DNA from: a virus
Lineage: Duplodnaviria; Caudoviricetes
Strand: one strand, 5' to 3'
IMG/VR virus record: IMGVR_UViG_3300049988_000124
Coordinates: 224,001 to 288,000 of that record
DNA: 64,000 bases
Each line of letters starts with the position of its first letter. Positions within the stretch are counted from its first letter, which is position 1. The notes under the pieces were generated by a model that saw only the letters and a program-made list of their open reading frames with translations, was not told the DNA's origin and ran no database searches. The position numbers and the translations under genes are program-made. Of this stretch, positions 4,949-29,289 are shown in pieces.

Positions 4949-5968
4949 CTAAAGGGCAAAGCCCATTGTGGGACGGACCTTGGTTTGTGGTCCTGATTGG
5001 AAGAGCTGAGAAAGAGTTCTGGATTCACCCGGATCAGCAATACCCGCAGCCGCCGCTGCGCGCGTTACCTCTCTGGCAGTAAGCTCTCGGAAGATCAACG
5101 TCTCAAAACACCTTCCGGGGCGAATGAGTGCTGGATCAACCTCGTTCAAGTTAGTAAGGTTAGCGGTGAAGATAATCTTCTTCTTGGTCTGGACCAGTCC
5201 GTCACTGGCATTCAAGAGCTTACCCATGACCTTGTTGCCGCCTTCCCTGTCACGCAGGATAATGTCGGCATCCTCTACGACGAGTAGGTCGTAAGGCTTG
5301 TTCATGAACTCGATGAAGAACTTGTCCTTCTTCATGAGGTCCTCATCATACGTTACGGCAGCGGACAGATCGTTGCGGTTGATGAGGTCGCGCACGAAAC
5401 TGGTCTTACCACAACCAGGATCACCGATCATGAGAAGAACGTTTGCCGTGGAATCCAGGAACTGACGTTGGAACTCTGCAACAGAGGGTTGGATCCAAGG
5501 AACGTACTCGTCCTTCATGTCGTAATTGTGCGAAAGTTCAACCGTGGTCTTGTCAGGCTTACCGTCAACCGCGTGATACCAGTCTACGCTGTTGGACTTA
5601 GTTCGGGGATGCTTTTCCTCAAGGATACGGTGAACGCGAACAACTTCATCTATCTCCCCGTAAAGAATAACACTACCGGTCCGCTTTATTTCTTTCAAGG
5701 CTGTCGGGTAAGCGTAAATACTGACGACCAGTTCACTGAACTTAATGGTCAAGAATTGGCTGGTCGGTACTGTCTGAAGTGGCTGTCTTCCAACCGCTTC
5801 TGCGATAGACTTCATCAAGGCTGGAATGTTACCGAAGAATTCGATACGAGCAACACCCCTGAAGAGAAGGTCGATACCCAACTCCTCGGCCATCTTGGTC
5901 TCGATAATCGTCGCGACGCCAGAAACAGTATTGTACTGAGCAACATGTGTAAGATCCTGGTACAGCAA
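4949..5968 (-). CDS. AAA+ ATPase, paralogue 1
   Basis: Walker A GDPGCGKT, Walker B LLVVEDAD, LLNASDGL, and ALIRPGRCF (SRH). C-terminus PTMGFAL. Confidence 0.9.
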   Translation of the reverse strand: MLYQDLTHVAQYNTVSGVATIIETKMAEELGIDLLFRGVARIEFFGNIPALMKSIAEAVGRQPLQTVPTSQFLTIKFSELVVSIYAYPTALKEIKRTGSVILYGEIDEVVRVHRILEEKHPRTKSNSVDWYHAVDGKPDKTTVELSHNYDMKDEYVPWIQPSVAEFQRQFLDSTANVLLMIGDPGCGKTSFVRDLINRNDLSAAVTYDEDLMKKDKFFIEFMNKPYDLLVVEDADIILRDREGGNKVMGKLLNASDGLVQTKKKIIFTANLTNLNEVDPALIRPGRCFETLIFRELTAREVTRAAAAAGIADPGESRTLSQLFQSGPQTKVRPTMGFAL

Positions 5969-6001: not shown

Positions 6002-7027
6002 TTAAAGAGCGAAGCCCATTGTGGTGGAAGGCTTCGTGGTCGGGCCAGTGGAGAAAAGACGCGACAAGGTCGTGCGCTCTTCTGGCTCGGGAAGATTCAT
6101 CTCCGCTGCTACTGCTTTTGCCTCAATGAGAGACAATTCACGAAACATCAATGTCTCGAAACAACGACCTGGCCTGATAAGGGCGGGGTCAATCTCATTG
6201 AGACTAGTGATGTTAGCCGTCATCACGATCTTCTTCTTGAGTGAGATAAGACCATCACTGACGTTGAGGAGCTTGTTCATGGTCTTATTACCTTGCGTGC
6301 GATCGCGCAGCAAGACGTCTGCATCCTCGAGTACCAGAAGGTCATTATGACCCGTGACAAAATCAGCGAAGAACTGATCCGTCGCCATCATGTTGTCATC
6401 GTAGGTAACCGTGGTTCCCAGCTTCTGGCTATGAATAAGGTGCCGGATAAAGGTGGTCTTTCCGGTACCAGGTTCACCGAGTAGGAGGAGTATGCTTGCA
6501 TCGCTATCGATGTAGGATTGGACAAACGACGCAATACCCTGACCAATCCACGGGTAGAAACTATCACGAGGAGTGTTCTTGACTTCGAGAAGCACTGTTT
6601 TGGTCATCATTCCACGCTCAGTCATGAACGACCAGTGAACGTAGGTGTCTTGCTGTCGTACGTGCTTTCCAAGACGATCGTGAATTTTCTCGATTGTCTC
6701 ATATTCACCGTAGAGAAACACATGTGTATCTCTGTTGAAAGAATGGAACATCTTTCCTTGATGATCGATCTTGATCACCAATTTATCAAAGACGATCAAG
6801 AAACCGTCAAAGAAAGGTTCAGTGCGGATTAGTTTACTATCAACGTAACCGCAGATGAGATCGACGAGATCTTTGTACGTACCCTTGATCATTATCTCGA
6901 TGGACGCTATGAACAACTTCTCTACGTTTTGATCACTCATGATTTCACTGGCACGCAGGAAAGCCTGAGACATTCCAACACTGTTGGAAATACTAAATGA
7001 TGATTGAATGTTGGTCTTCATGATCAA
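6002..7027 (-). CDS. AAA+ ATPase, paralogue 2
   Basis: Walker A GEPGTGKT, Walker B LLVLEDAD, LLNVSDGL, and ALIRPGRCF. C-terminus TTMGFAL. Confidence 0.9.
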   Translation of the reverse strand: MIMKTNIQSSFSISNSVGMSQAFLRASEIMSDQNVEKLFIASIEIMIKGTYKDLVDLICGYVDSKLIRTEPFFDGFLIVFDKLVIKIDHQGKMFHSFNRDTHVFLYGEYETIEKIHDRLGKHVRQQDTYVHWSFMTERGMMTKTVLLEVKNTPRDSFYPWIGQGIASFVQSYIDSDASILLLLGEPGTGKTTFIRHLIHSQKLGTTVTYDDNMMATDQFFADFVTGHNDLLVLEDADVLLRDRTQGNKTMNKLLNVSDGLISLKKKIVMTANITSLNEIDPALIRPGRCFETLMFRELSLIEAKAVAAEMNLPEPEERTTLSRLFSTGPTTKPSTTMGFAL

Positions 7028-8089: not shown

Positions 8090-9244
8090 CTAATCCTGAA
8101 TGATGTGGGGAACAAACTGGGCGGTGTTACCCGTCACCAGTCCGTCTTCTCGAATACCCATGCCAGCTGGTTCACCGTCGATGACCCAAGAACCAATAAC
8201 GGGATACTTCCCGTCAAACTCAGGTAGGTCAAAGAGGTCCTGGTAGACGTGCCCCTCGGTGCCGTAGTCACCGCCGGTCTGGCCAATTGTCTGACCATTC
8301 TTGACGATGGTAACGTTTGCACCCTCACGACTGAGGAAGGGCTTACAAGCGTAGTTAGCGCTCGTGGTACTACCAATGGTTGCTGGTAGGAGATACTCGT
8401 TACTGGGATCAAAGGTGTAGAGAAGAGCCAGGATCGCCTTGTTGCTCCAGAGCATCTTCCAGATAGGCTCTAGCCACGTCGTCCGGGGTAGCTCCGCAAT
8501 CGCCTGCCTACCGTAGGCTTCGTTGGCCATCCACTCCCACGGGTGGAGCTTGAAGATCTGGTCGATCGGGTAATCTTCCAGATCCACGAATCGTCCCTCA
8601 GCAGTAATGCCGATATCGTCTATGGCGATGGGGAGCGTGGTAAAGCCAGCCTTCTCCGCAGTATCGCGCATGTAGGCCATGGTGACGGTGTCTTCACCGG
8701 TCGGCTCGACGACGTTGCTGAAGTAGAGCGGCTTATTGGGATCAAGCGCTGTTCGCAGATCTCGCCACTTGCCCACGAGCTTGTCGTGGATGCTGTTGAA
8801 CTGATCGTGCTGCGGGAAGACCTGCTCTTTCCATCGCCACTGGATCACGCTGGCCTCTAGGAGACTGGTTGGTGTATCGCAGTTAAACTCAAAGAGCTTA
8901 GGCGTTCCATTGGGCGCAAAACCAAAGTCGAAGCGACCAAAGTTCAGCGCCGGTGGCTCCTCATTCCAGGTATCGCGAATGGCTTGCTGGACGTACTCAG
9001 GAATCCCGAAGCGGTCCATCCAATCGTAGTCCTTACGCTCATTGACGAGCGCATCGCCTACTCGGATGAACAGCTCATAAAGCTCAGCCGTAGCAGTCTC
9101 AATGCGATCGATCTCGGAGCGAGTAAAGCTGTAATAGATTCCCTCATTCCAATAAGGCTGATTGTTCAGCGTGTGCCAGACAAGACCGTCCTGCTCCACG
9201 AGCTGACGCCAGTTGGGCCTGGCTGCTACGGCTAGACGCTTCAT
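8090..9244 (-). CDS. Glutathionylspermidine synthase family ATP-grasp protein (YgiC/YjfC-like)
   Basis: PYWNE.IYY.F, GRFDF, PKLFEFNCDTPTSLLEAS, IFKLHPWEWM, LEPIWKMLWSNKAIL, KPFLSREGANV, YPVIGSWV and GIRED. Confidence 0.93.
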   Translation of the reverse strand: MKRLAVAARPNWRQLVEQDGLVWHTLNNQPYWNEGIYYSFTRSEIDRIETATAELYELFIRVGDALVNERKDYDWMDRFGIPEYVQQAIRDTWNEEPPALNFGRFDFGFAPNGTPKLFEFNCDTPTSLLEASVIQWRWKEQVFPQHDQFNSIHDKLVGKWRDLRTALDPNKPLYFSNVVEPTGEDTVTMAYMRDTAEKAGFTTLPIAIDDIGITAEGRFVDLEDYPIDQIFKLHPWEWMANEAYGRQAIAELPRTTWLEPIWKMLWSNKAILALLYTFDPSNEYLLPATIGSTTSANYACKPFLSREGANVTIVKNGQTIGQTGGDYGTEGHVYQDLFDLPEFDGKYPVIGSWVIDGEPAGMGIREDGLVTGNTAQFVPHIIQD

Positions 9245-15580: not shown

Positions 15581-16096
15581 TTACGTTTGAGGGGATTCTC
15601 CGTCTTGTGATTCGCCGGTGTATCCGGCACTTCCGAGTGCGAACATAGACGTGTAACCAATGATATTCGTGCCGTCTGCGGACATGTCGTGAAAGAAAGA
15701 AGGAGGAGAGAGGTTGCGGTGTGAAGCCACTGAACCGTCCAGGTGAAATACTTCTCCATTGTCCCAGTCAATGGGAGGTGATGTCAAACTGTTACCACTG
15801 TGAAGCGCTTCGTGGGGACCCCATGGTTTCATCCCTTCTGGAATAACCAAGGAGAAAACCTTTCGCCAGGTCATGGCGTCGCAACAATCAACCTTTCGGC
15901 TGGTAACGCGGCCTTCTTCGATCAGGTCGATAAGAATTTCATAGATCGAATCAAGCGGCATATAGCGGTCATACACCGAGAGGATGTTTGACTGAATGCT
16001 TATTCCGTAAGCCAGGTTGCCCAGATTCGCGATGGCTTGAAGAACAAGAATGCTTGCTTTGTCGGTGAAGATGGTCGGCGTTCTCAGTTCGGACAT
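15581..16096 (-). CDS. PadR-family winged-helix protein with C-terminal extension
   Basis: ILVLQAI...AYGISIQ...LDSIYEIL..L.EEGRVTS...RKVFSL matches the PadR pattern. Confidence 0.6.
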   Translation of the reverse strand: MSELRTPTIFTDKASILVLQAIANLGNLAYGISIQSNILSVYDRYMPLDSIYEILIDLIEEGRVTSRKVDCCDAMTWRKVFSLVIPEGMKPWGPHEALHSGNSLTSPPIDWDNGEVFHLDGSVASHRNLSPPSFFHDMSADGTNIIGYTSMFALGSAGYTGESQDGESPQT

Positions 16097-16602
16097 TTTG
16101 TTCTCTCCCTAGCACTTATTTGGTTCTGATTTTTCATGAAGTTGAAGAACGGCTCAAGCTTCATGCTGATCGCTTCGGCAGCGACGTTGTTCTTGGAATG
16201 GACGATGTAGACGAATGGACGGAATGTGACGTGTCCATCGAGGATGTTGTCGATGAGCCATTGGACGCAGTATCGACCTTCTCCGTTCCCATCACCTAGG
16301 TCATTGTCGAATGAGATCTTGTCAGGGATCCCGTTTGTTAAAATGTAATCTTCGAACTCTTCTTGTGTGCGCACAATCGTCCAAGGACCCAGACCGATGT
16401 CGATCCAGGTGACATCCTCAGGGCGACGTTCATCGTCGAGAAAGAGATTGCGAGGAACCGAGCGGAGAAAGATCTCTTTCGTGTTCCGCTCAATCTCTAC
16501 CCGAGCGTTGAAGTCACCAGCAGCATAACCCATTCGGTAGGCTACAACAATTGTACAGAGCACAGCGAGTGCGAGGACCAGTATACCTAGTATCTCATCC
16601 AC
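16084..16602 (-). CDS. Membrane-anchored cyclic-phosphate-processing receiver-like domain protein
   Basis: N-terminal TM, then LFLDDERRP, W.IVRT.EEF, ISFDNDLG and VHSKNNVAAEAI, matching the stand-alone receiver-like family seen in phages. Confidence 0.65.
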   Translation of the reverse strand: MDEILGILVLALAVLCTIVVAYRMGYAAGDFNARVEIERNTKEIFLRSVPRNLFLDDERRPEDVTWIDIGLGPWTIVRTQEEFEDYILTNGIPDKISFDNDLGDGNGEGRYCVQWLIDNILDGHVTFRPFVYIVHSKNNVAAEAISMKLEPFFNFMKNQNQISARERTKCPN

Positions 16603-23044: not shown

Positions 23045-23072
23045 AGTAAGAGGGGCACTCGCCCCTCTTACT
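23045..23072 (-). terminator. Hairpin terminator
   Basis: agtaagaggggc/gcccctcttact 12-bp stem. Confidence 0.75.
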
Positions 23073-26000
23073 CACAATCCTATTCTCTCATCTTCTAGTT
23101 CGAGGTTAGCGCTTTCCTTTGATGCGTCGATAACTTGCTTATACTCACGCTCGTCAGGATCAGGGCCTGCGAAGTCTGCACCAACGATGCTGTTGATGAG
23201 TTCGCGCACCTCTGCTAGGATCTCGTCGGTACGAGATGACACGTTGGGAACACCGCCAGTATCAAGGGTTACCTCGATAATCGTGACCGGGTGAATCTGT
23301 CCCAATCGGTCCGCACGAGCAATCACCTGATCATAGGTAGCCTGCCGGTAGGGACGATTGAGTAGCACCACCGTCGAGGCGGCAATCACCGGAACGGCCT
23401 CTGAGAGCGACTGCATAGTCGCACAGATCGGATTTACATTCGGGTCATCAGTGAAGCGGTTGATGTTCTTGGTTAGGTCTGCGTTGGTATCAGCGTAGAC
23501 CATGAGGGGCTCAAAGCCCTGATCGGTCAGATGCTTACTCAAGACCTTAACCGGTAGCACTGAGGAGGCAAAGAAGAGTGTCTTGGAGAGCGACTCTTTC
23601 ATGATCACGTCGGGCTTACAGAACACACCCAAGGCTGCTGCACATTCTGATCGACGCTTAGCGAGGATCGTGCCCAATGCCTCGCCTCGCACCTTCAGCT
23701 TCAAGTTCTTCACAGCGGACAGAGCATTTCTGAACTCACTGCGATTGATCGGTGGAATTGACGGATAGAGTTTGGTCCGCTCGTAGGTACGACACGCAGC
23801 CATCTGGTCCGTCATCATGAGGTCAGGTGCTCTCATGATCATCTTGAGATTCTTCTGATAGGTGTAGAAAGCTTGACGGTCTTGACGAGATTCTAACTTA
23901 TTCTCGTGGTAGTTCATGTAAAAATCAACGAGCTTACGATAATGCTTGATGTTGTCTTTATACATGGTCAACTGCTTCTGGATGAACTCTTTCATCTCCT
24001 CCCTGACTGTTGACATCAGGAATTTATGAGCAAGGGCTGGAGGCAATCTGACGGGAAGTTCTTTTACCACAGGCTTGGTGGCAGAGAAAGCAGACTTACC
24101 GACCATGAAGGCCATCTGCTGACCCAAACGATGTTGGAAGATTTCGCCTGCCTTACCAGGAGACATCGTGAAGATCTGCTTGAAGCGTCGCTCTGCATCA
24201 GCATCGAACCGGTGGTCCGAGCATTTGAGAAACGAGACCATCTCAGCGGCACTCTTCAGGATCGGTGAGCCTGATGTCCACAAGAATAGAACATCGTCTC
24301 TTAGAGTCTGGAGCTTTACGAGCTGCTGAGTACGGTTGGAGCGCCAGTCCGCAAAGTTGTGGGACTCATCGACGATCACGAAATATTTGCGACCTTGAGC
24401 GTGGATCTTCTTGCCGAGTTCGATCGCTTTGTTGATCTGCTCGAAGTTGAAGATGTAATATTCGGTCTTCTTCTCTGGCATCGGTAAACCAGAGTCACAG
24501 CACCAGTAAGTCGGAGTCTTCTTAAAGACGCTGTTGATCGTCTTTTCCCAAACGAGGTGGAGTGCCTTCTTGGGAGAGATGATGATCTTGACATCAGCGA
24601 CACTGGGAGGAACCACGCATTCAGCGACGCAGAGATCAAGGAAGGTGTTGTGCGTCACGATGTAATCGTTCGTAATGTACAAACGATCAGGGTGATCAAC
24701 AGAGATACACTGGGCCTGCTTCTTACCGACGTAACGAATCTTTTCAATACGCAGGCGCAAGCTGTCCTTGTACTGGTAGTTCTCAGGAGTCAGCTCCTTC
24801 TTGCGAGGAAGACGGAAGAGGTCGGTAGGCTCGCGGTAGCGAATGTTAACCTGATAAGCAGGCTTACCTTCCTTGCGCTCACCCTTGTAGGTGTAGTGCG
24901 TCTGTTTAGTCTTGATGCGAGCAAGACCACCAATGCTGCGAATCAACTCCTGTATGTGCTTAGCGAGCTGTTCGCTAGTTGTGCAGAATGACGTACTTCC
25001 ATTCTCACTGACGGTTCCGTCCGAATCCATCAGACCTTGAATAAGCGCAAGCTTCTGAGAGAAGGAGGCATTCAGGTAGACATCCGGAACAAACTTGGTA
25101 TGACTACGAGTACTGTTGAGTTTGAGAGCATGAAGCTGATCAACCAACATCGATCTCGACCAACGCTTCTCCCGTGTCTTCTTCACGACTTGATAGTCGT
25201 ACGAAGACCTGGACTTATCGGGCCGGTACACCAACTCAGAATCGTCGGGAAGCAGATGTGAGACCTGGTCTACAATGAAGCCATCTGCCGAGGAAATCGA
25301 CACCGTTCCTTCACGGATGTGTCCATCACCAAGGATGATGCCGAGAAGGTAGGGATCAATGGATAGCTGAACGTCTTCCTTGATCTCTGGCTCGGGAAGA
25401 GGAACGTAGAGACGACTGGGTTCGAGTTGGTGATTGTCCATATGTAGACGAATGTCAATGAAGGGAACGACCTTCCAACCATCCACACGACCGTCCTTGT
25501 TGGAGCGTGCCCAATCCTTGTGTCGAACTTTCCAGAGGTGGTCATCACAGCATTCCACTGAACGACCGTCCTCAAAGGTTACTTCGTACATGTCGAGCTC
25601 ACCTTGCGGATAAACTCCAGTAACGAACGAGGTTCCACCATCGGGTGTAACAATGGGCTGACCAACGGTCATGTCACCATTGCGCATCCATCCTGACGGA
25701 GTACGAATGAGATCTTCTAGGCCTAGCGCTTTACCACCACCAGGGGCAAAGCCGATGATGTAACCACGCAAGTCATAGCGCGGCATCCGGTCACCGAAGA
25801 GATGAAGGAACTCAATCTGCTTGGGCATGGCCTGCCACTTCATCTGATTGAGACGCTTCATGTCGATGATTGACTTAACCTCGCCGGTACTAACCTTGAA
25901 CCACGTGTCCTCGAGGAGTCCTTTGACGATCTTGTCGATGGTGCGCTTACCCGACCACGTCGTGCGCTCATCGTGACGCAATTTGGCAAGCATGAAGATT

Positions 26001-26233
26001 AGGTCGGGGACGAAGAAGCGATTGAGCGTGAAAGCAGTGTCGGTGATGGAGGTAAACATCTTCTTGGCGATCACGTCTGTCTCAAAGAGAATCTTGAAGT
26101 GATTGCGTAAGATGAGACCGTCGACACCGGTAATCTTGACCAGGTTACCTGTCTCTTTAACACTGATCATTCCGAAGGCTCGGGCGAAATATTCCATGAA
26201 TTTCATGACGGTTCCTGTCATGGCTAATAACAT
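23072..26233 (-). CDS. SNF2-like SF2 helicase containing an intein
   Basis: Walker A APGGGK|T split by an intein, motif II VDESH, III SGSP and VI QVIARADRLGQ. Confidence 0.88.
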   Translation of the reverse strand: MLLAMTGTVMKFMEYFARAFGMISVKETGNLVKITGVDGLILRNHFKILFETDVIAKKMFTSITDTAFTLNRFFVPDLIFMLAKLRHDERTTWSGKRTIDKIVKGLLEDTWFKVSTGEVKSIIDMKRLNQMKWQAMPKQIEFLHLFGDRMPRYDLRGYIIGFAPGGGKALGLEDLIRTPSGWMRNGDMTVGQPIVTPDGGTSFVTGVYPQGELDMYEVTFEDGRSVECCDDHLWKVRHKDWARSNKDGRVDGWKVVPFIDIRLHMDNHQLEPSRLYVPLPEPEIKEDVQLSIDPYLLGIILGDGHIREGTVSISSADGFIVDQVSHLLPDDSELVYRPDKSRSSYDYQVVKKTREKRWSRSMLVDQLHALKLNSTRSHTKFVPDVYLNASFSQKLALIQGLMDSDGTVSENGSTSFCTTSEQLAKHIQELIRSIGGLARIKTKQTHYTYKGERKEGKPAYQVNIRYREPTDLFRLPRKKELTPENYQYKDSLRLRIEKIRYVGKKQAQCISVDHPDRLYITNDYIVTHNTFLDLCVAECVVPPSVADVKIIISPKKALHLVWEKTINSVFKKTPTYWCCDSGLPMPEKKTEYYIFNFEQINKAIELGKKIHAQGRKYFVIVDESHNFADWRSNRTQQLVKLQTLRDDVLFLWTSGSPILKSAAEMVSFLKCSDHRFDADAERRFKQIFTMSPGKAGEIFQHRLGQQMAFMVGKSAFSATKPVVKELPVRLPPALAHKFLMSTVREEMKEFIQKQLTMYKDNIKHYRKLVDFYMNYHENKLESRQDRQAFYTYQKNLKMIMRAPDLMMTDQMAACRTYERTKLYPSIPPINRSEFRNALSAVKNLKLKVRGEALGTILAKRRSECAAALGVFCKPDVIMKESLSKTLFFASSVLPVKVLSKHLTDQGFEPLMVYADTNADLTKNINRFTDDPNVNPICATMQSLSEAVPVIAASTVVLLNRPYRQATYDQVIARADRLGQIHPVTIIEVTLDTGGVPNVSSRTDEILAEVRELINSIVGADFAGPDPDEREYKQVIDASKESANLELEDERIGL
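24647..25729 (-). mobile_element. Class 3-type intein (361 aa) with LAGLIDADG homing endonuclease
   Basis: Begins ALGLED (Ala1) after GGGK and ends IVTHN before Thr+1. Has block B DHLW, block F QAQCISV, and LAGLIDADG-like motifs YLLGIILGDGH and ALIQGLMDSDG. Confidence 0.9.
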
Positions 26234-26253
26234 AGGATTTTTGATGAAAGAAA

Positions 26254-26281
26254 GTAGGAGGGGGCTGATGCCCCCTCCTAC
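26254..26281 (-). terminator. Hairpin terminator
   Basis: gtaggagggggc/gccccctcctac 12-bp stem. Confidence 0.75.
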
Positions 26282-26288
26282 CCCTTAG

Positions 26289-27806
26289 TCAGTACGAACT
26301 AGTACAGTGAAAGATCTTCTGCAAGATCTGGCGAATCTCACCGATCTTGAACGGCTTCTTCAGAACCGTATATCCTTCAAGCTCTGCACTGTCAGAGAAA
26401 CCAGTCACGAAGACCACTTCCAAATCAGGGTGAAGGAGCTTGGCTGAGCGGATGACCTGTGCTCCGTTCATAACGGGCATGGCGTAGTCAATGACGACCA
26501 GGTCAGGACGGTTGTCCTTCAGGTAGACCAATGCATCCATACCGTCGACCGCTGTCTTGACGTGGTGACCAAGAAGCGTCAAGATCTCCGAGAGCGTCTC
26601 CCGGACACCTGGATCATCGTCGACCAGGAGGATGTTCTTGGCCTCACACATCTGGATGAGATTACCGGCTACTACCTCTTCCTGGAAGATCGCTGCGTTC
26701 TTAACGACGGGCAGACTGATCGTGATCGTGGTACCCTTCTCCGACGTCTTCTTGATGTAGACATCGCCGCCTGACTGATTAGCCAGACCGTAAACCATGC
26801 TGAGACCAAGACCTGTTCCCTTACCAATATCCTTGGTAGTGAAGAACGGCTCAAAGACGCGCGCCGCAACATCGGCAGGAATACCAATACCGGTATCAGT
26901 GACGTTGATCTCAACCTCGTCATTCTCGATGATCGTGGAGATCGTGAGACTACCGCCCTCGGGCATTGCGTCGCGAGCGTTGACCGCCAGGTTCAAGATA
27001 GCCAGTTCAAGCTGAACCGGATCAGTGCGCACCACTACGTCGGTGATGTTGGAGGTGGAGATCTGAATGTCTGGACCGATGGTCCGGGTGATCAACTGCC
27101 TGACGTTCATGATGACCGGAGCCAGTTCCACTTCCTTGATCTGGAGCTTCTGGTTACGCGAGAACGTCAGGAGCTGTGCAGTCAGATGTGATGCTCTCGA
27201 TATTGCCTCAATACCAACACCCACCCAGCGCGGTACACGGTCACTGTGGGGATTACTACTGATGAGCTCGAGGCTACCACTGATGGCTTGGACGAGATTG
27301 TTAAAGTCGTGCGCAATGCCGCCTGTTAACTGGCCCACTGCTTCCATCTTCTGTGACTGGAGCAGGTGAGTCTGTGCGCGCTCTTTCTCGTCCTTCTCGA
27401 TCTTAAGCTCTTGGATCTTCTGCTCGAGCTGGCGATTAAGGGCATCAATCTTAGCAAAAGAAGGAAGCTTGATCGCTGTTGGAATAAGGAACCACAGACT
27501 ACCCAAGGCTAGAATGGAGAGAAGTGAGGAAATGAGTTGCATGGTGGGTGAGGGTGAGTGGTTCTCCACGGTCATCCCAAAAACGGCCCAGGCTCTACCG
27601 AGCGCACAAACAGCATTTGAGATCAGGAAGAACCAGATAAACTTGTTGTCGCGAAGGTCAGGGCGTTCCTTTAGAACCTTGGTCGACAACGTGGCATTAG
27701 TTGTGTGAAAAGCACCAGCGAAGAGATGGGTAAGAATGGAGGCAAGAACAGGCCAGGGATTCGGCCCGAAATACTGAACGGCTAATAGCCAAAAATCTGC
27801 GGACAC
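26289..27806 (-). CDS. Hybrid sensor histidine kinase-response regulator with ETR1-like three-TM sensor
   Basis: H-box [10 protein letters not shown]-box [12 protein letters not shown]1 [16 protein letters not shown]2 GTGLGL and receiver ILLVDDD...VIDYAMP...VTG...KKPF. The N-terminal TM region ends [24 protein letters not shown]. Confidence 0.93.
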
Positions 27807-27821
27807 GGGGATGATATTCCT

Positions 27822-28157
27822 TTAACCAGTATAAAGCGAGGGGCTGTATATATCGAAGGAATCGCCGCGTTGCTTAAAGGCACGACCATTCCAAGTCACT
27901 TGTTTTTGCAAGAACTTTTGCTTGTCAAAGACCACGGTGTCCCCGACCTTCATGATCTGCATGTCGTGGACTTGGGAGAGGTCTGGGTCACTAGCAAGGT
28001 GAACCGGCATTCCAGTTTTGTCGGCAACGTTGATGTAGAATGAATTCTGTTGTCCGGCAGGCAGATCAGTAATGATCTGAATGATCGCGCCGGAGCCCGG
28101 AGGCTCACGGTGAGTGTGAGTAAGTCGTTGGACTTGCGTGATCTTTGCCGTGCGCAT
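27822..28157 (-). CDS. Hypothetical protein
   Basis: 111 aa with RBS gagga, directly upstream of the kinase. Confidence 0.65.
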   Translation of the reverse strand: MRTAKITQVQRLTHTHREPPGSGAIIQIITDLPAGQQNSFYINVADKTGMPVHLASDPDLSQVHDMQIMKVGDTVVFDKQKFLQKQVTWNGRAFKQRGDSFDIYSPSLYTG

Positions 28158-28401
28158 AACGTCCTCGATAAAAGCGATAGGGGTTCATATCAGAGTCGGA
28201 CTAAATAGTCCCTAGAGGGCTAAATGAAATTCTTCTTTGTTGCTGTCTCTTGGTATGAGCCTTCTAAACTCCAGTAGAAAGAATCGATTACATGCTCTTC
28301 AGGAACATACACCACGAGAGAGTGTGGATCATATCGCTATTAACATTGTTCTGGGTTGGAGTGTTCGCTAAATACTACGGTTACTAAGGGGAGGGGTCCA
28401 G

Positions 28402-29289
28402 GTGACTCAGGAGATTCTACGCTCAAAGCAAGACAAGTCCATTAACTTTGTAACACACGCCGATGATGGTGGTAAGATCGAAGCTCGCTTTGTTCAACGC
28501 GAAGAAGACACGATCATTGTCTACCTCTCCTCGATGACGGGGTGCAACCTTAGTTGTCGTTTCTGCCATCTGACCCAGATGCACGAGACCACGATGACGG
28601 CCGTTGACATCGATGGGTATCTTACCCAAGCCCGCGATGTTCTGACGCTCGCTGCCAAAGAAGGCAAGCTTGCCAATGTTCAGACGGTGCATTTCAACTT
28701 CATGGCGAGGGGAGATGCTCTATCGAACATCTACTTTGTCAACAAGACCGAGTTGTTGTTCTACCGGCTAGATAGTCTCTCGGCTGAACATGGTCTTATC
28801 TCCAAGTTCAAGATCTCCACGATCTTTCCCAACACACTCCTGGATAGCTTCACCCTTCCTATGTTGAAAGAATGGGTGGAGCAGGTCTACGATCTTCCCT
28901 ACGACGTTGAGTTCTATTACTCCCTTTATTCACTGGACGAGGCGTTCAGGAAGAGGTGGATTCCCAAAGGAATGGATCCCGAACGTGTCGGTTATCTCTT
29001 TGAGGGAACAGAGGGAAAGCTTCGTCTCCATCACGCCCTGATCGACAAAGAGAATTGCTCACTGGCTAACACCAATCCGATCAAGAGTTGGTTGGTCAGG
29101 TATGACATCAAATGTCGTTTAAACATCGTACGCTATAATCCTTTCAACAACGGATCAGGTGTAGAAGCCTCCGACGGGGACATTCGCACTTATTGTGGTA
29201 TCATGTCATTGTGCCCCAATATCCTGGGTACTTACGTAGTCAGTCGCGTCGGTCTCGACGTCAAAGCTAGTTGCGGAACATTCGTGTGA
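28402..29289 (+). CDS. RlmN/Cfr-like radical SAM enzyme
   Basis: KIEARF, SSMTGCNLSCRFCH (CxxxCxxC), HFNFMARGDAL, YSLYS, NIVRYNP and C-terminal DVKASCG (RlmN IDAACG equivalent). Confidence 0.85.
   Translation: MTQEILRSKQDKSINFVTHADDGGKIEARFVQREEDTIIVYLSSMTGCNLSCRFCHLTQMHETTMTAVDIDGYLTQARDVLTLAAKEGKLANVQTVHFNFMARGDALSNIYFVNKTELLFYRLDSLSAEHGLISKFKISTIFPNTLLDSFTLPMLKEWVEQVYDLPYDVEFYYSLYSLDEAFRKRWIPKGMDPERVGYLFEGTEGKLRLHHALIDKENCSLANTNPIKSWLVRYDIKCRLNIVRYNPFNNGSGVEASDGDIRTYCGIMSLCPNILGTYVVSRVGLDVKASCGTFV

Follow-up and report, generated by a model that had tools for sequence, protein, structure and literature searches.

The locus described here raises a simple question: what use to a bacteriophage is a kinase with the sensor of an ethylene receptor? 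The gene, at 26289..27806 on the minus strand, lies in a window of 64,000 nucleotides that comprises positions 224001-288000 of the IMG/VR virus record IMGVR_UViG_3300049988_000124 (Caudoviricetes; 307,821 bp). It encodes P0001, a hybrid histidine kinase of 505 residues. An original prediction, made from the letters of the window, took it for a host ethylene/copper sensor of the ETR1 type that the phage had captured and whose ligand site it had changed. The comparisons set out below argue that the sensor of P0001 is homologous to the ETR1_N domain, that its ethylene/copper pocket is remodelled, and that the remodelled sensor is functional; what the altered pocket does is then weighed.

A complete hybrid histidine kinase

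The open reading frame list and its translation give P0001 as a complete coding sequence with a GTG start. Five codons lie between this GTG and the in-frame TAA that ends the upstream gene for a 111-residue protein, and an AGGA is found 11 nt 5' of the start. The first in-frame methionine is residue 78, within the second transmembrane segment (TM2); the first residue of the two closest relatives, P0016 and P0017, is likewise printed as V.

Behind the sensor, a helical linker (residues 117-157; 27336..27458, minus strand, as are all parts of the gene) leads to the dimerization and histidine phosphotransfer (DHp) domain; it is modelled by AlphaFold2 (AF2) as a helix over residues 117-149 and has a conserved N124 and L127. 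The HisKA/DHp domain (residues 158-219; 27150..27335; Pfam 31.3 bits) contains the phospho-accepting H166 of an HDFNN H-box, encoded at 27309-27311 and invariant in the alignment. The HATPase_c domain (residues 262-367; 26706..27023; 84.7 bits) has intact N, G1, F and G2 boxes, namely N276, DTGIGI at 304-309 (D304-G306-G308), the F-box at 318-325 (F318) and GTGLGLS at 330-336 (G330-G332-G334). In the receiver (residues 392-495; 26322..26633; Response_reg 68.3 bits), the phospho-acceptor D440 of the VVIDYAMP motif is encoded at 26487-26489, and D397, D398, T468 and K484 are also intact.

All three catalytic and receiver domains exceed their Pfam gathering thresholds (HisKA 26.9, HATPase_c 26.4, Response_reg 30.2 bits), which is the domain composition of a hybrid kinase. 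H166, N276, the G1, F and G2 boxes, D397, D440, T468 and K484 are invariant across the eight core proteins of the phage clade described below, while the D398 position is Asp or Glu. By its domains and motifs, P0001 is predicted to be a catalytically competent, membrane-anchored hybrid histidine kinase. The complete kinase with all its boxes and receiver aspartate that the original prediction had read from the translation is found residue for residue. Of the three hydrophobic segments it described in front of the kinase, TM2 and TM3 are borne out; the first is weakly hydrophobic.

A divergent ETR1_N sensor

Residues 1-116 (27459..27806) form a divergent membrane sensor of the ETR1_N type, recognized by a sub-threshold Pfam match, by phmmer and hhalign, and by comparison of individual sites. 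Alignment and AF2 place three helices in it. Helix 1 (residues 17-47; 27666..27758), weakly hydrophobic in the hydropathy scan, carries H27, H34, N37 and A38; helix 2 (residues 55-81; 27564..27644) carries N64, C67 and R71; and helix 3 (residues 87-113; 27468..27548) has Q90 at the position of the ETR1 relay residue Lys91 and retains LW.LIP...LPS. In the alignment, P0001 lacks the N-terminal PHG.C motif that the bacterial domains have.

The Pfam ETR1_N profile (PF25487) gives 21.4 bits (E = 3e-4) when residues 1-140 are the query, matching residues 37-114, and 16.9 bits on the whole protein, against a gathering threshold of 27 bits; sub-threshold matches to this profile are likewise given by 10 of 14 control genomes. 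More sensitive comparisons are clear. A phmmer search with residues 1-145 against all 1.84 billion cluster representatives returns 14 matches at E < 1e-3 (E = 1e-5 to 9e-4), and all 14 of these proteins carry ETR1_N in register, at 99-141 bits. When a profile of P0001 and its two closest relatives is aligned by hhalign with a profile of 18 canonical domains, homology has a probability of 99.2% (E = 9.6e-20) over residues 42-143. The best matches in a protein-language-model search of the ESM Atlas are ETR1_N clusters (0.94, 0.92 and 0.91), and phage relatives intermediate between P0001 and the canonical domains exceed the Pfam ETR1_N threshold. A word-indexed search with residues 1-140 found the query itself as sole match. 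By these profile and pairwise matches, the sensor of P0001 is homologous to ETR1_N, and the profile comparison with ETR1-type domains that had been suggested as a check comes out in favour, with Pfam alone sub-threshold.

The gap-free alignment over TM2 and TM3 claimed in the original prediction holds, and the colinear stretch extends further back: from the Asp25 equivalent to the Asn that follows TM3, P0001 is colinear with the canonical domain of the sphingomonad homologue P0024, with no gaps and a constant offset of 8. The register of helix 1 rests on this colinearity and on the intermediate sequences, because the local hhalign alignment omits helix 1. In a scan with 19-residue Kyte-Doolittle windows, TM2 (56-78) and TM3 (88-116) reach the threshold mean of 1.4, and no window before residue 56 does so; the mean over residues 18-36 is about 1.0 by hand sum.

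An AF2 model of the sensor, built with a 43-sequence alignment, has a mean predicted local distance difference test score (pLDDT) of 91 and helices at 17-47, 55-81, 87-113 and 117-149, while a single-sequence AF2 run on the whole kinase gave an unusable model (pLDDT 40). Foldseek comparison of the sensor model with the Swiss-Prot models puts plant ethylene receptors, matched through their binding domain, in about half of the 30 best rows. This is consistent with ETR1_N homology and is not an independent proof of it, since the model leans on a canonical-rich alignment.

The remodelled pocket

Tyr32 of ETR1 was reportedly one of seven residues required for ethylene binding in an alanine scan of 2006. 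Binding of copper and ethylene involves D25, C65 and H69, and the signal is relayed by K91 (PMC10266040); I35, P36 and I62 also belong to the set without which ethylene is not bound (PMC6586836). The alphaproteobacterial receptor AzoEtr1 is able to bind ethylene and has each of the seven required residues (PMC11819568). In the 18 canonical domains, D35, Y42, I45, P46, I72, C75, G76 and H79 (P0024 numbering) are invariant, and these correspond to ETR1 D25, Y32, I35, P36, I62, C65, G66 and H69. The P0024 residues D35, C75 and H79 share their numbers with those of AzoEtr1 (PMC11819568) and map to residues 27, 67 and 71 of P0001.

At the eight positions equivalent to ETR1 D25, Y32, I35, P36, I62, C65, H69 and K91, P0001 has H27, H34, N37, A38, N64, C67, R71 and Q90, so that seven of the eight canonical residues are replaced and the Cys alone is kept. 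The retained Cys, the Arg at the His69 position and the His at the Asp25 position had all been read correctly from the translation; the change to the ligand site proves larger than was then noted. In place of the Cys65/His69 pair of a functional receptor there is C67 with R71, in place of Asp25 and Lys91 there are H27 and Q90, and Tyr32, Ile35, Pro36 and Ile62 have become H34, N37, A38 and N64. Judged by these residues, P0001 does not qualify as a functional ethylene receptor while remaining an ETR1_N homologue.

The same eight positions vary widely among the phage relatives. They read H-H-N-A-N-C-R-Q in P0016, as in P0001, and Q-H-N-A-N-C-R-Y in P0017; N-Y-I-P-N-H-R-K in P0018 and N-Y-I-P-N-Y-K-R in P0020; and D-Y-I-S-L-R-H-K in P0021 and D-H-I-P-I-R-H-K in P0022. 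The canonical D-Y-I-P-I-C-H-K is present in P0019 and in all 24 cellular homologues for which the pocket was counted. Arg or Lys replaces His69 in five phage proteins and Arg replaces Cys65 in two others, so that one or other copper-ligand position is Arg or Lys in seven of the eight derived phage-contig copies. From these alignments, the particular rewiring seen in P0001 is specific to one branch of a phage family that also holds canonical and differently altered copies. P0020 (L014:1072-2577) has, with Asn at Asp25 and Lys at His69, a Tyr at the Cys65 position, which is the etr1-1 substitution.

Selection on the sensor

The N-terminal parts of P0001, P0016 and P0017 are only 35-48% identical. 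Six of their eight pocket and relay sites are invariant, against 24 of 118 positions overall (hypergeometric p = 8.5e-4). Sensor identity between phage orthologues is 26-50%, so that synonymous sites would be saturated for a ratio of nonsynonymous to synonymous rates. A closer variant comes from a phyllosphere metagenome of 2018, a contig of which is 93.5% identical to the window over 27340-28400. Within codons 46-143 it differs by 24 synonymous and 7 conservative codon changes, roughly a ten-fold silent excess. The replacements are K46R, V66I, A74V, V75I, N82S, L99M and E137Q, and N64, C67, R71 and Q90 are unchanged. For this variant, the only close one examined, the codon changes point to purifying selection on the remodelled sensor.

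The pattern of conservation along the protein differs between cells and phages. Among the cellular homologues, 271 of 276 pairs have a sensor that is better conserved than the DHp and catalytic domains (medians 70% versus 56%), whereas all 28 pairs of phage proteins have one that is less conserved than the kinase core (23% versus 62%). These identities make it clear that selection came to act differently on the sensor once the gene was in phages. In cells no part of the protein is better conserved than this domain, whereas in phages none evolves faster, though it is still constrained there; such a pattern is the signature of a sensor repurposed after capture. Because six of the eight pocket and relay sites are invariant in the subclade, synonymous changes are in excess, and the kinase and receiver residues are intact in the eight core proteins, it can be argued that the altered sensor is functional and not decaying.

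Relatives and origin of the kinase

Searches with the whole protein find relatives in two layers. The first comprises eight proteins with 46-56% identity (BLASTP) on phage-like contigs, three of which are 127-283 kb long and the others 3.7-56 kb. The second comprises dozens of proteins with 37-42% identity over about 88-97% of the query and the same ETR1_N-HisKA-HATPase-REC architecture, of 520-553 residues in the rows listed; where a source is named, it is Sphingomonas, Allosphingosinicella or Sphingomicrobium. Pattern scans for further relatives, made twice in IMG/VR and also in the JGI metagenome contigs, confirmed none, so the subclade with the H-H-N-A-N-C-R pocket stays at three proteins. 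A megablast search of GenBank phages with 14 kb around the kinase gene gave no match. A tblastn search of phages with the kinase gave matches to the kinase core alone, below 33% identity and many of them in mislabelled bacterial records.

In a maximum likelihood tree (quick search, unrooted, with supports from the Shimodaira-Hasegawa-like approximate likelihood ratio test, SH-aLRT), the nine phage-contig proteins form one clade, with a support of 98, which rises to 100 when the core eight are taken alone. P0001 groups with P0016 and P0017 (support 99). P0019, with its canonical domain, branches first within the core eight, at a support of 89 that is not decisive. A transfer from cell to phage is suggested by the wide occurrence of the canonical architecture in cells and by the canonical domain kept by P0019. 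Derivation from a cellular ETR1_N-HisKA-HATPase-REC gene, of the sort that the ethylene receptor AzoEtr1 exemplifies, is therefore likely, not proven. As a refinement of the earlier idea of a captured sensor, the shared architecture indicates that it is the whole hybrid kinase that was captured, not just the sensor. Of that idea, the ETR1_N homology and the altered ligand site stand, the capture itself is likely and falls short of proof, and the rewiring is confined to one branch. Taken together, the identity and origin given here for P0001 are very probably correct.

In the 32-kb contig L007, two tandem kinase paralogues flank a gene for a protein of about 110 residues (L007:8023-11548), P0019 being the downstream and P0022 the upstream copy; in the other contigs one copy alone is present, in the upstream or the downstream position. 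P0016, the closest relative (56% identity, with the same remodelled pocket), is encoded on a 282.6-kb contig (L005), where none of eight window neighbours tested is present within 10 kb and genes for NADAR, RyR and PP-binding proteins are found instead. Either the kinase gene has moved in that phage, or the phage is organized differently.

A phage gene without a canonical phage partner

The record is 100% complete according to CheckV and has genes typical of phages, including those for a multisubunit RNA polymerase beta subunit (phrog_3015), virion structural proteins and several helicases. The order of genes around the kinase (radical-SAM-like gene on the opposite strand, gene for a protein of about 110 residues, kinase, SNF2 helicase) is kept in L006, L007, L008, L012 and L014. 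In these five contigs, of 12-254 kb, the proteins encoded beside the kinase share 39-79% identity with their counterparts in the window; the comparison leaves out P0023, the first-layer relative on the 3.7-kb contig. This conservation of position among phage genes in independent assemblies marks the kinase as a phage gene.

The sequencing runs that hold the gene are labelled leaf metagenomes, and one of them may be the source of this DNA. A second leaf run, from another study, holds 94% of the sampled words, and its contigs are identical to the window over 26000-27334 and 27385-28400, joining the kinase to both neighbour genes. Two further leaf runs have identical or near-identical short pieces. 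The leaf studies of 2025 possibly belong to one campaign and, with the 2018 study, are counted as at least two independent sources. No RNA run is listed among the holders of the gene. The G+C content of the 26001-28000 bin, 0.513, is inside the range of the window (0.46-0.56). When contamination by host DNA is looked at in this way, the five syntenic contigs, the bridging contigs of the second study and the complete record uphold the view that the kinase is phage-encoded.

The whole phage genome has exactly one HATPase_c domain and one canonical Response_reg domain, both in P0001, and profile scans find no histidine phosphotransfer (Hpt) protein and no second canonical receiver anywhere in it. 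The lack of a cognate response regulator, which had been remarked on for the window, thus extends to the whole genome and to Hpt proteins as well. P0001 is in this sense an orphan: with no Hpt protein and no other canonical receiver of the phage's own, any signalling by it must go through host proteins.

How the remodelled sensor may work

The reading that we prefer is that of a captured kinase which has become blind to ethylene, is locked in one signalling state and feeds a host phosphorelay. P0001 would sit in the inner membrane and would have lost the canonical mode of ethylene sensing. Its polar, remodelled bundle of helices, in which Arg71 takes the place of the copper-ligand His, may hold the kinase in one state, much as plant ETR1 mutants of the binding site such as etr1-1 (C65Y) are stuck 'on'. 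Loss-of-binding mutants of this kind give dominant ethylene insensitivity in plants, because the receptor cannot switch from 'on' to 'off' (PMC10266040). Autophosphorylation on H166 would be followed by transfer of the phosphoryl group to the protein's own D440 and then, the phage having neither an Hpt protein nor another canonical receiver, to a host Hpt protein or response regulator, presumably that served by the host's own ETR1_N kinase. The phage could in this way set the output of a plant-signal pathway of its host during infection, regardless of ethylene. As a whole, this explanation is given a probability of about 0.45. Its specific mechanism, ligand-independent and ethylene-blind, is put forward tentatively, on the strength of the pocket alignments. 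It is preferred because seven of the eight functional residues are gone, because the phage branches have broken the site differently, and because Arg or Lys recurs at the copper-ligand positions. As far as the alignment can tell, sites broken in different ways speak for selection to lose the ancestral function and not to gain a single new ligand. That a tethered positive charge acts as a stand-in for the metal is speculation.

A number of points weigh against this reading. A locked and a re-tuned sensor are indistinguishable from sequence, and a polar pocket would fit a new ligand site equally well; the retained Cys67 and the His at the Asp25 position make a rearranged copper site possible; and the analogy with plant receptors may not carry over to a bacterial hybrid kinase. 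The weak hydrophobicity of helix 1 makes the three-helix topology uncertain, canonical sequences dominate the alignment behind the AF2 model, and the Foldseek matches to plant receptors are individually insignificant (E = 0.3-1.2; template modelling (TM) scores of 0.39-0.50). The variant analysis is of one contig, at a depth of about 7.5, and does not cover helix 1. The tree is unrooted, with the phage clade outside and not inside the sampled cellular clade, and the host is named from the nearest cellular homologues of the kinase alone. Finally, the homologues in Sphingomonas glaciei and in a Sphingomonas sp. metagenome-assembled genome have no adjacent Hpt or response regulator gene that would mark the target pathway.

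What the pocket does instead, if it is not locked, depends on how its polar residues are understood. H27, H34, N37, N64, C67, R71 and Q90 could bind another ligand and leave the kinase regulated, in which case some other metal ion, an anion or a small polar membrane-soluble molecule might supply the phage with its own input on the environment or the state of the host. This would explain the conserved polar residues just as well as a locked state does. The substitutions fall exactly at the ethylene/copper pocket, are polar and are largely invariant in the three orthologues (six of the eight sites, with the p value given above); they are unchanged in a natural variant under strong purifying selection; each phage branch has its own set, as expected for diversifying specificity; and the sensor outpaces the kinase core in evolution only in phages. 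A re-tuned sensor is nevertheless somewhat unlikely, since a cation site would sit badly with an Arg in the pocket, conservation of a buried polar network can have structural reasons alone, and several branches carry substitutions that abolish binding in ETR1, such as the Tyr at Cys65 in P0020. It is less probable still that ethylene continues to be sensed, perhaps with altered affinity, by a site in which Cys67 and His27 and/or His34 coordinate Cu(I). The Cys is the sole canonical residue kept and does not vary within the subclade, all three orthologues have His34, the Asp25 position on helix 1, which now has a His, is beside Cys65 and His69 in published models (PMC10266040), and ethylene is a plausible signal for a phage from leaf and phyllosphere metagenomes. 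Against such a site, six of the seven ethylene-binding residues of ETR1 are changed, including I35, P36 and I62 that line it; P0017 has Gln and not His at the Asp25 position; and Arg71 would set a positive charge beside the bound Cu(I). In ETR1 itself, D25A abolishes binding and even conservative changes of D25 nearly abolish copper binding (PMC10266040), which makes a rearranged copper site improbable.

The gene might also have no working function in the phage, either as mis-assembled host DNA or as a decaying passenger with a drifting sensor. The fast evolution of the sensor in phages, its sub-threshold Pfam match and the lack of RNA runs among the listed holders of the gene would suit such an account. 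It would have to be reconciled with a gene order common to five other contigs, in which several more genes of the window recur, with identical contigs of a second study that bridge the kinase to both phage neighbours, with a G+C content inside the window's range, with catalytic residues that are all kept across proteins only 44-57% identical, and with the 24 synonymous and 7 conservative changes in the variant sensor; contamination or decay is accordingly highly improbable. The locked, ethylene-blind kinase thus remains the preferred reading, ahead of these alternatives.

Comparison with known systems

The ethylene receptor that P0001 most resembles in layout is AzoEtr1 of Azospirillum brasilense (PMC11819568), a proven receptor with a three-helix ETR1_N-type domain, a helical linker and a histidine kinase; P0001 would share this layout as far as its predicted helices go. 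The ETR1_N-HisKA-HATPase-REC kinases of Sphingomonadaceae, such as P0056 of Sphingomonas glaciei, share with P0001 both the four-domain architecture and a sensor that aligns without gaps. AzoEtr1 and the sphingomonad kinases keep D-Y-I-P-I-C-H-K, whereas P0001 has the remodelled residues, no PHG.C, a weakly hydrophobic helix 1 and a phage genome around it. The AzoEtr1 gene is also adjacent to a response regulator gene (PMC11819568), while the P0001 gene has none. Arabidopsis ETR1 has a homologous sensor, and the substitutions of P0001 fall on residues whose mutation abolishes binding there (PMC10266040); P0001 differs from ETR1 in being of the bacterial type, with an HDFNN H-box and no GAF domain, and in having a whole set of changes where the plant alleles have single-residue ones. 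Closest to P0001 in its setting are P0019 and P0022 of L007, which belong to the same clade (51% and 44% identity over the whole length) and lie in the same neighbourhood. P0019 is fully canonical in its ETR1_N domain, including PHGYC, P0022 has Arg at Cys65, and there are two copies there against one here.

The original prediction had linked the kinase, through its HDFNN H-box, to CckA and the ChpT-CtrA phosphorelay. CckA- and PRK13557-type HDFNN kinases of Alphaproteobacteria do have a similar core and receiver, and P0001 scores 298 bits with PRK13557 and 264 bits with Brucella-type CckA, far below the curated cut-offs of 631 and 1000; its sensor is of another family, with no PAS domain found by Pfam. 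An assignment of P0001 as CckA was rejected on these grounds: the models NF046020 and NF046026 give 264 and 228.5 bits against 1000 and match the kinase-receiver part only. The suggested link to ChpT-CtrA falls with it, the closest cellular relatives being, in the two cases examined, orphan ETR1_N kinases with no partner gene beside them.

Kinases have been described in viruses before: Clostridium difficile phage phiCDHM1 has an AgrC-like one and Ectocarpus virus has hybrid kinases (both cited in PMC6324907). These, together with a sasA-annotated kinase of Microcystis phage MaAM05, are like P0001 in that the virus has a kinase without a complete pathway of its own; unlike P0001, none of the three is reported with an ETR1_N-type sensor. 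The MaAM05 protein matches P0001 over the kinase core only, at 30% identity (tblastn). A literature search found no report of a phage-encoded ETR1-type kinase. Histidine kinases of viruses and ETR1-type receptors of bacteria are already known.

Ethylene receptors are a textbook case of plant signalling, and their bacterial relatives (SynEtr1 and AzoEtr1) were shown to work only recently. Crystallization of the full-length receptor has so far failed (PMC12643061). The phage family offers a natural series from canonical to variously altered pockets on a conserved kinase, and so provides material for structure-function work. Sphingomonas is a common genus of the leaf surface. The occurrence of a complete ETR1-family kinase in a phage of leaves and the phyllosphere suggests phage interference in plant-microbe signalling. 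That phyllosphere jumbo phages took over the ethylene receptor kinase of a leaf bacterium and repeatedly re-engineered its copper pocket, either for a new cue or as a copper-free, 'always unliganded' mimic, is a doubtful proposition when taken as a whole. If it is true, infection would let a virus tap or overrule the plant-hormone signalling of its host, and the family, with canonical members, members with Tyr, His or Arg at Cys65 and fully remodelled ones, would be a natural mutational series for the coupling of ligand to output.

Neighbouring genes and other features

The gene for the 111-residue protein (27822..28157, minus strand) lies 15 nt upstream of the kinase. Its orthologues, 39-54% identical, stand beside the kinase in L006, L007, L008, L012 and L014, that is, in every related contig examined. 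Translational coupling is suggested by a 4-nt overlap, in L006, L007 and L012, between the start of this gene and the stop of an upstream kinase copy. The protein has no family match. PmrD and IraM bind response regulators, and a structure search of the Atlas gives the 111-residue protein a PmrD/IraM-like fold with a TM score of 0.48, a weak lead. Prediction of a complex between it and kinase residues 140-505 gave a score of 0.00, with the fold of the partner uncertain.

Downstream of the kinase stop, a consensus scan finds a terminator-like GC hairpin (26259..26275, minus strand) in the 55-nt gap that precedes the SNF2-type helicase gene (23072..26233, minus strand; a DNA helicase in PHROG). 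Comparison of orthologues shows an insert of about 300 residues in the helicase (roughly residues 231-529), which is missing from the orthologues of 683-684 residues in L008, L012 and L014. The orthologue in L006 (825 residues) also aligns in two pieces, and that in L007 (1039 residues) retains the insert, with a weak LAGLIDADG_3 match. The pattern fits a putative intein with a homing endonuclease, polymorphic in the lineage. Divergent from the 111-residue protein and kinase pair is a gene for a radical S-adenosylmethionine (radical-SAM)-like Fe-S protein of 295 residues (28402..29289, plus strand; phrog_27142, with Radical_SAM below threshold), whose orthologues in L006, L008 and L014, with 54-65% identity, occupy the corresponding position.

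The phage encodes three proteins of the cREC_REC family (PF20274, 'cyclic-phosphate processing receiver'; 67.6, 53.7 and 43 bits). One is encoded on the strand of the kinase, some 10 kb downstream (16084-16602, minus strand), and the other two outside the window (G000:C1:104764-105066 and 104292-104573); L008 has a cREC_REC gene in a similar position. As candidate partners of the kinase these proteins were set aside, because the family is reported never to occur with histidine kinases (PMC7824862).

Elsewhere in the window are a gene of the auxiliary metabolic kind, for glutathionylspermidine synthase (8090-9244, minus strand; phrog_6215, E = 1e-114), and two adjacent paralogous genes for ATPase-like proteins of 339 and 341 residues (4949-5968 and 6002-7027, minus strand), both of which match phrog_14322 with E of about 1e-51.

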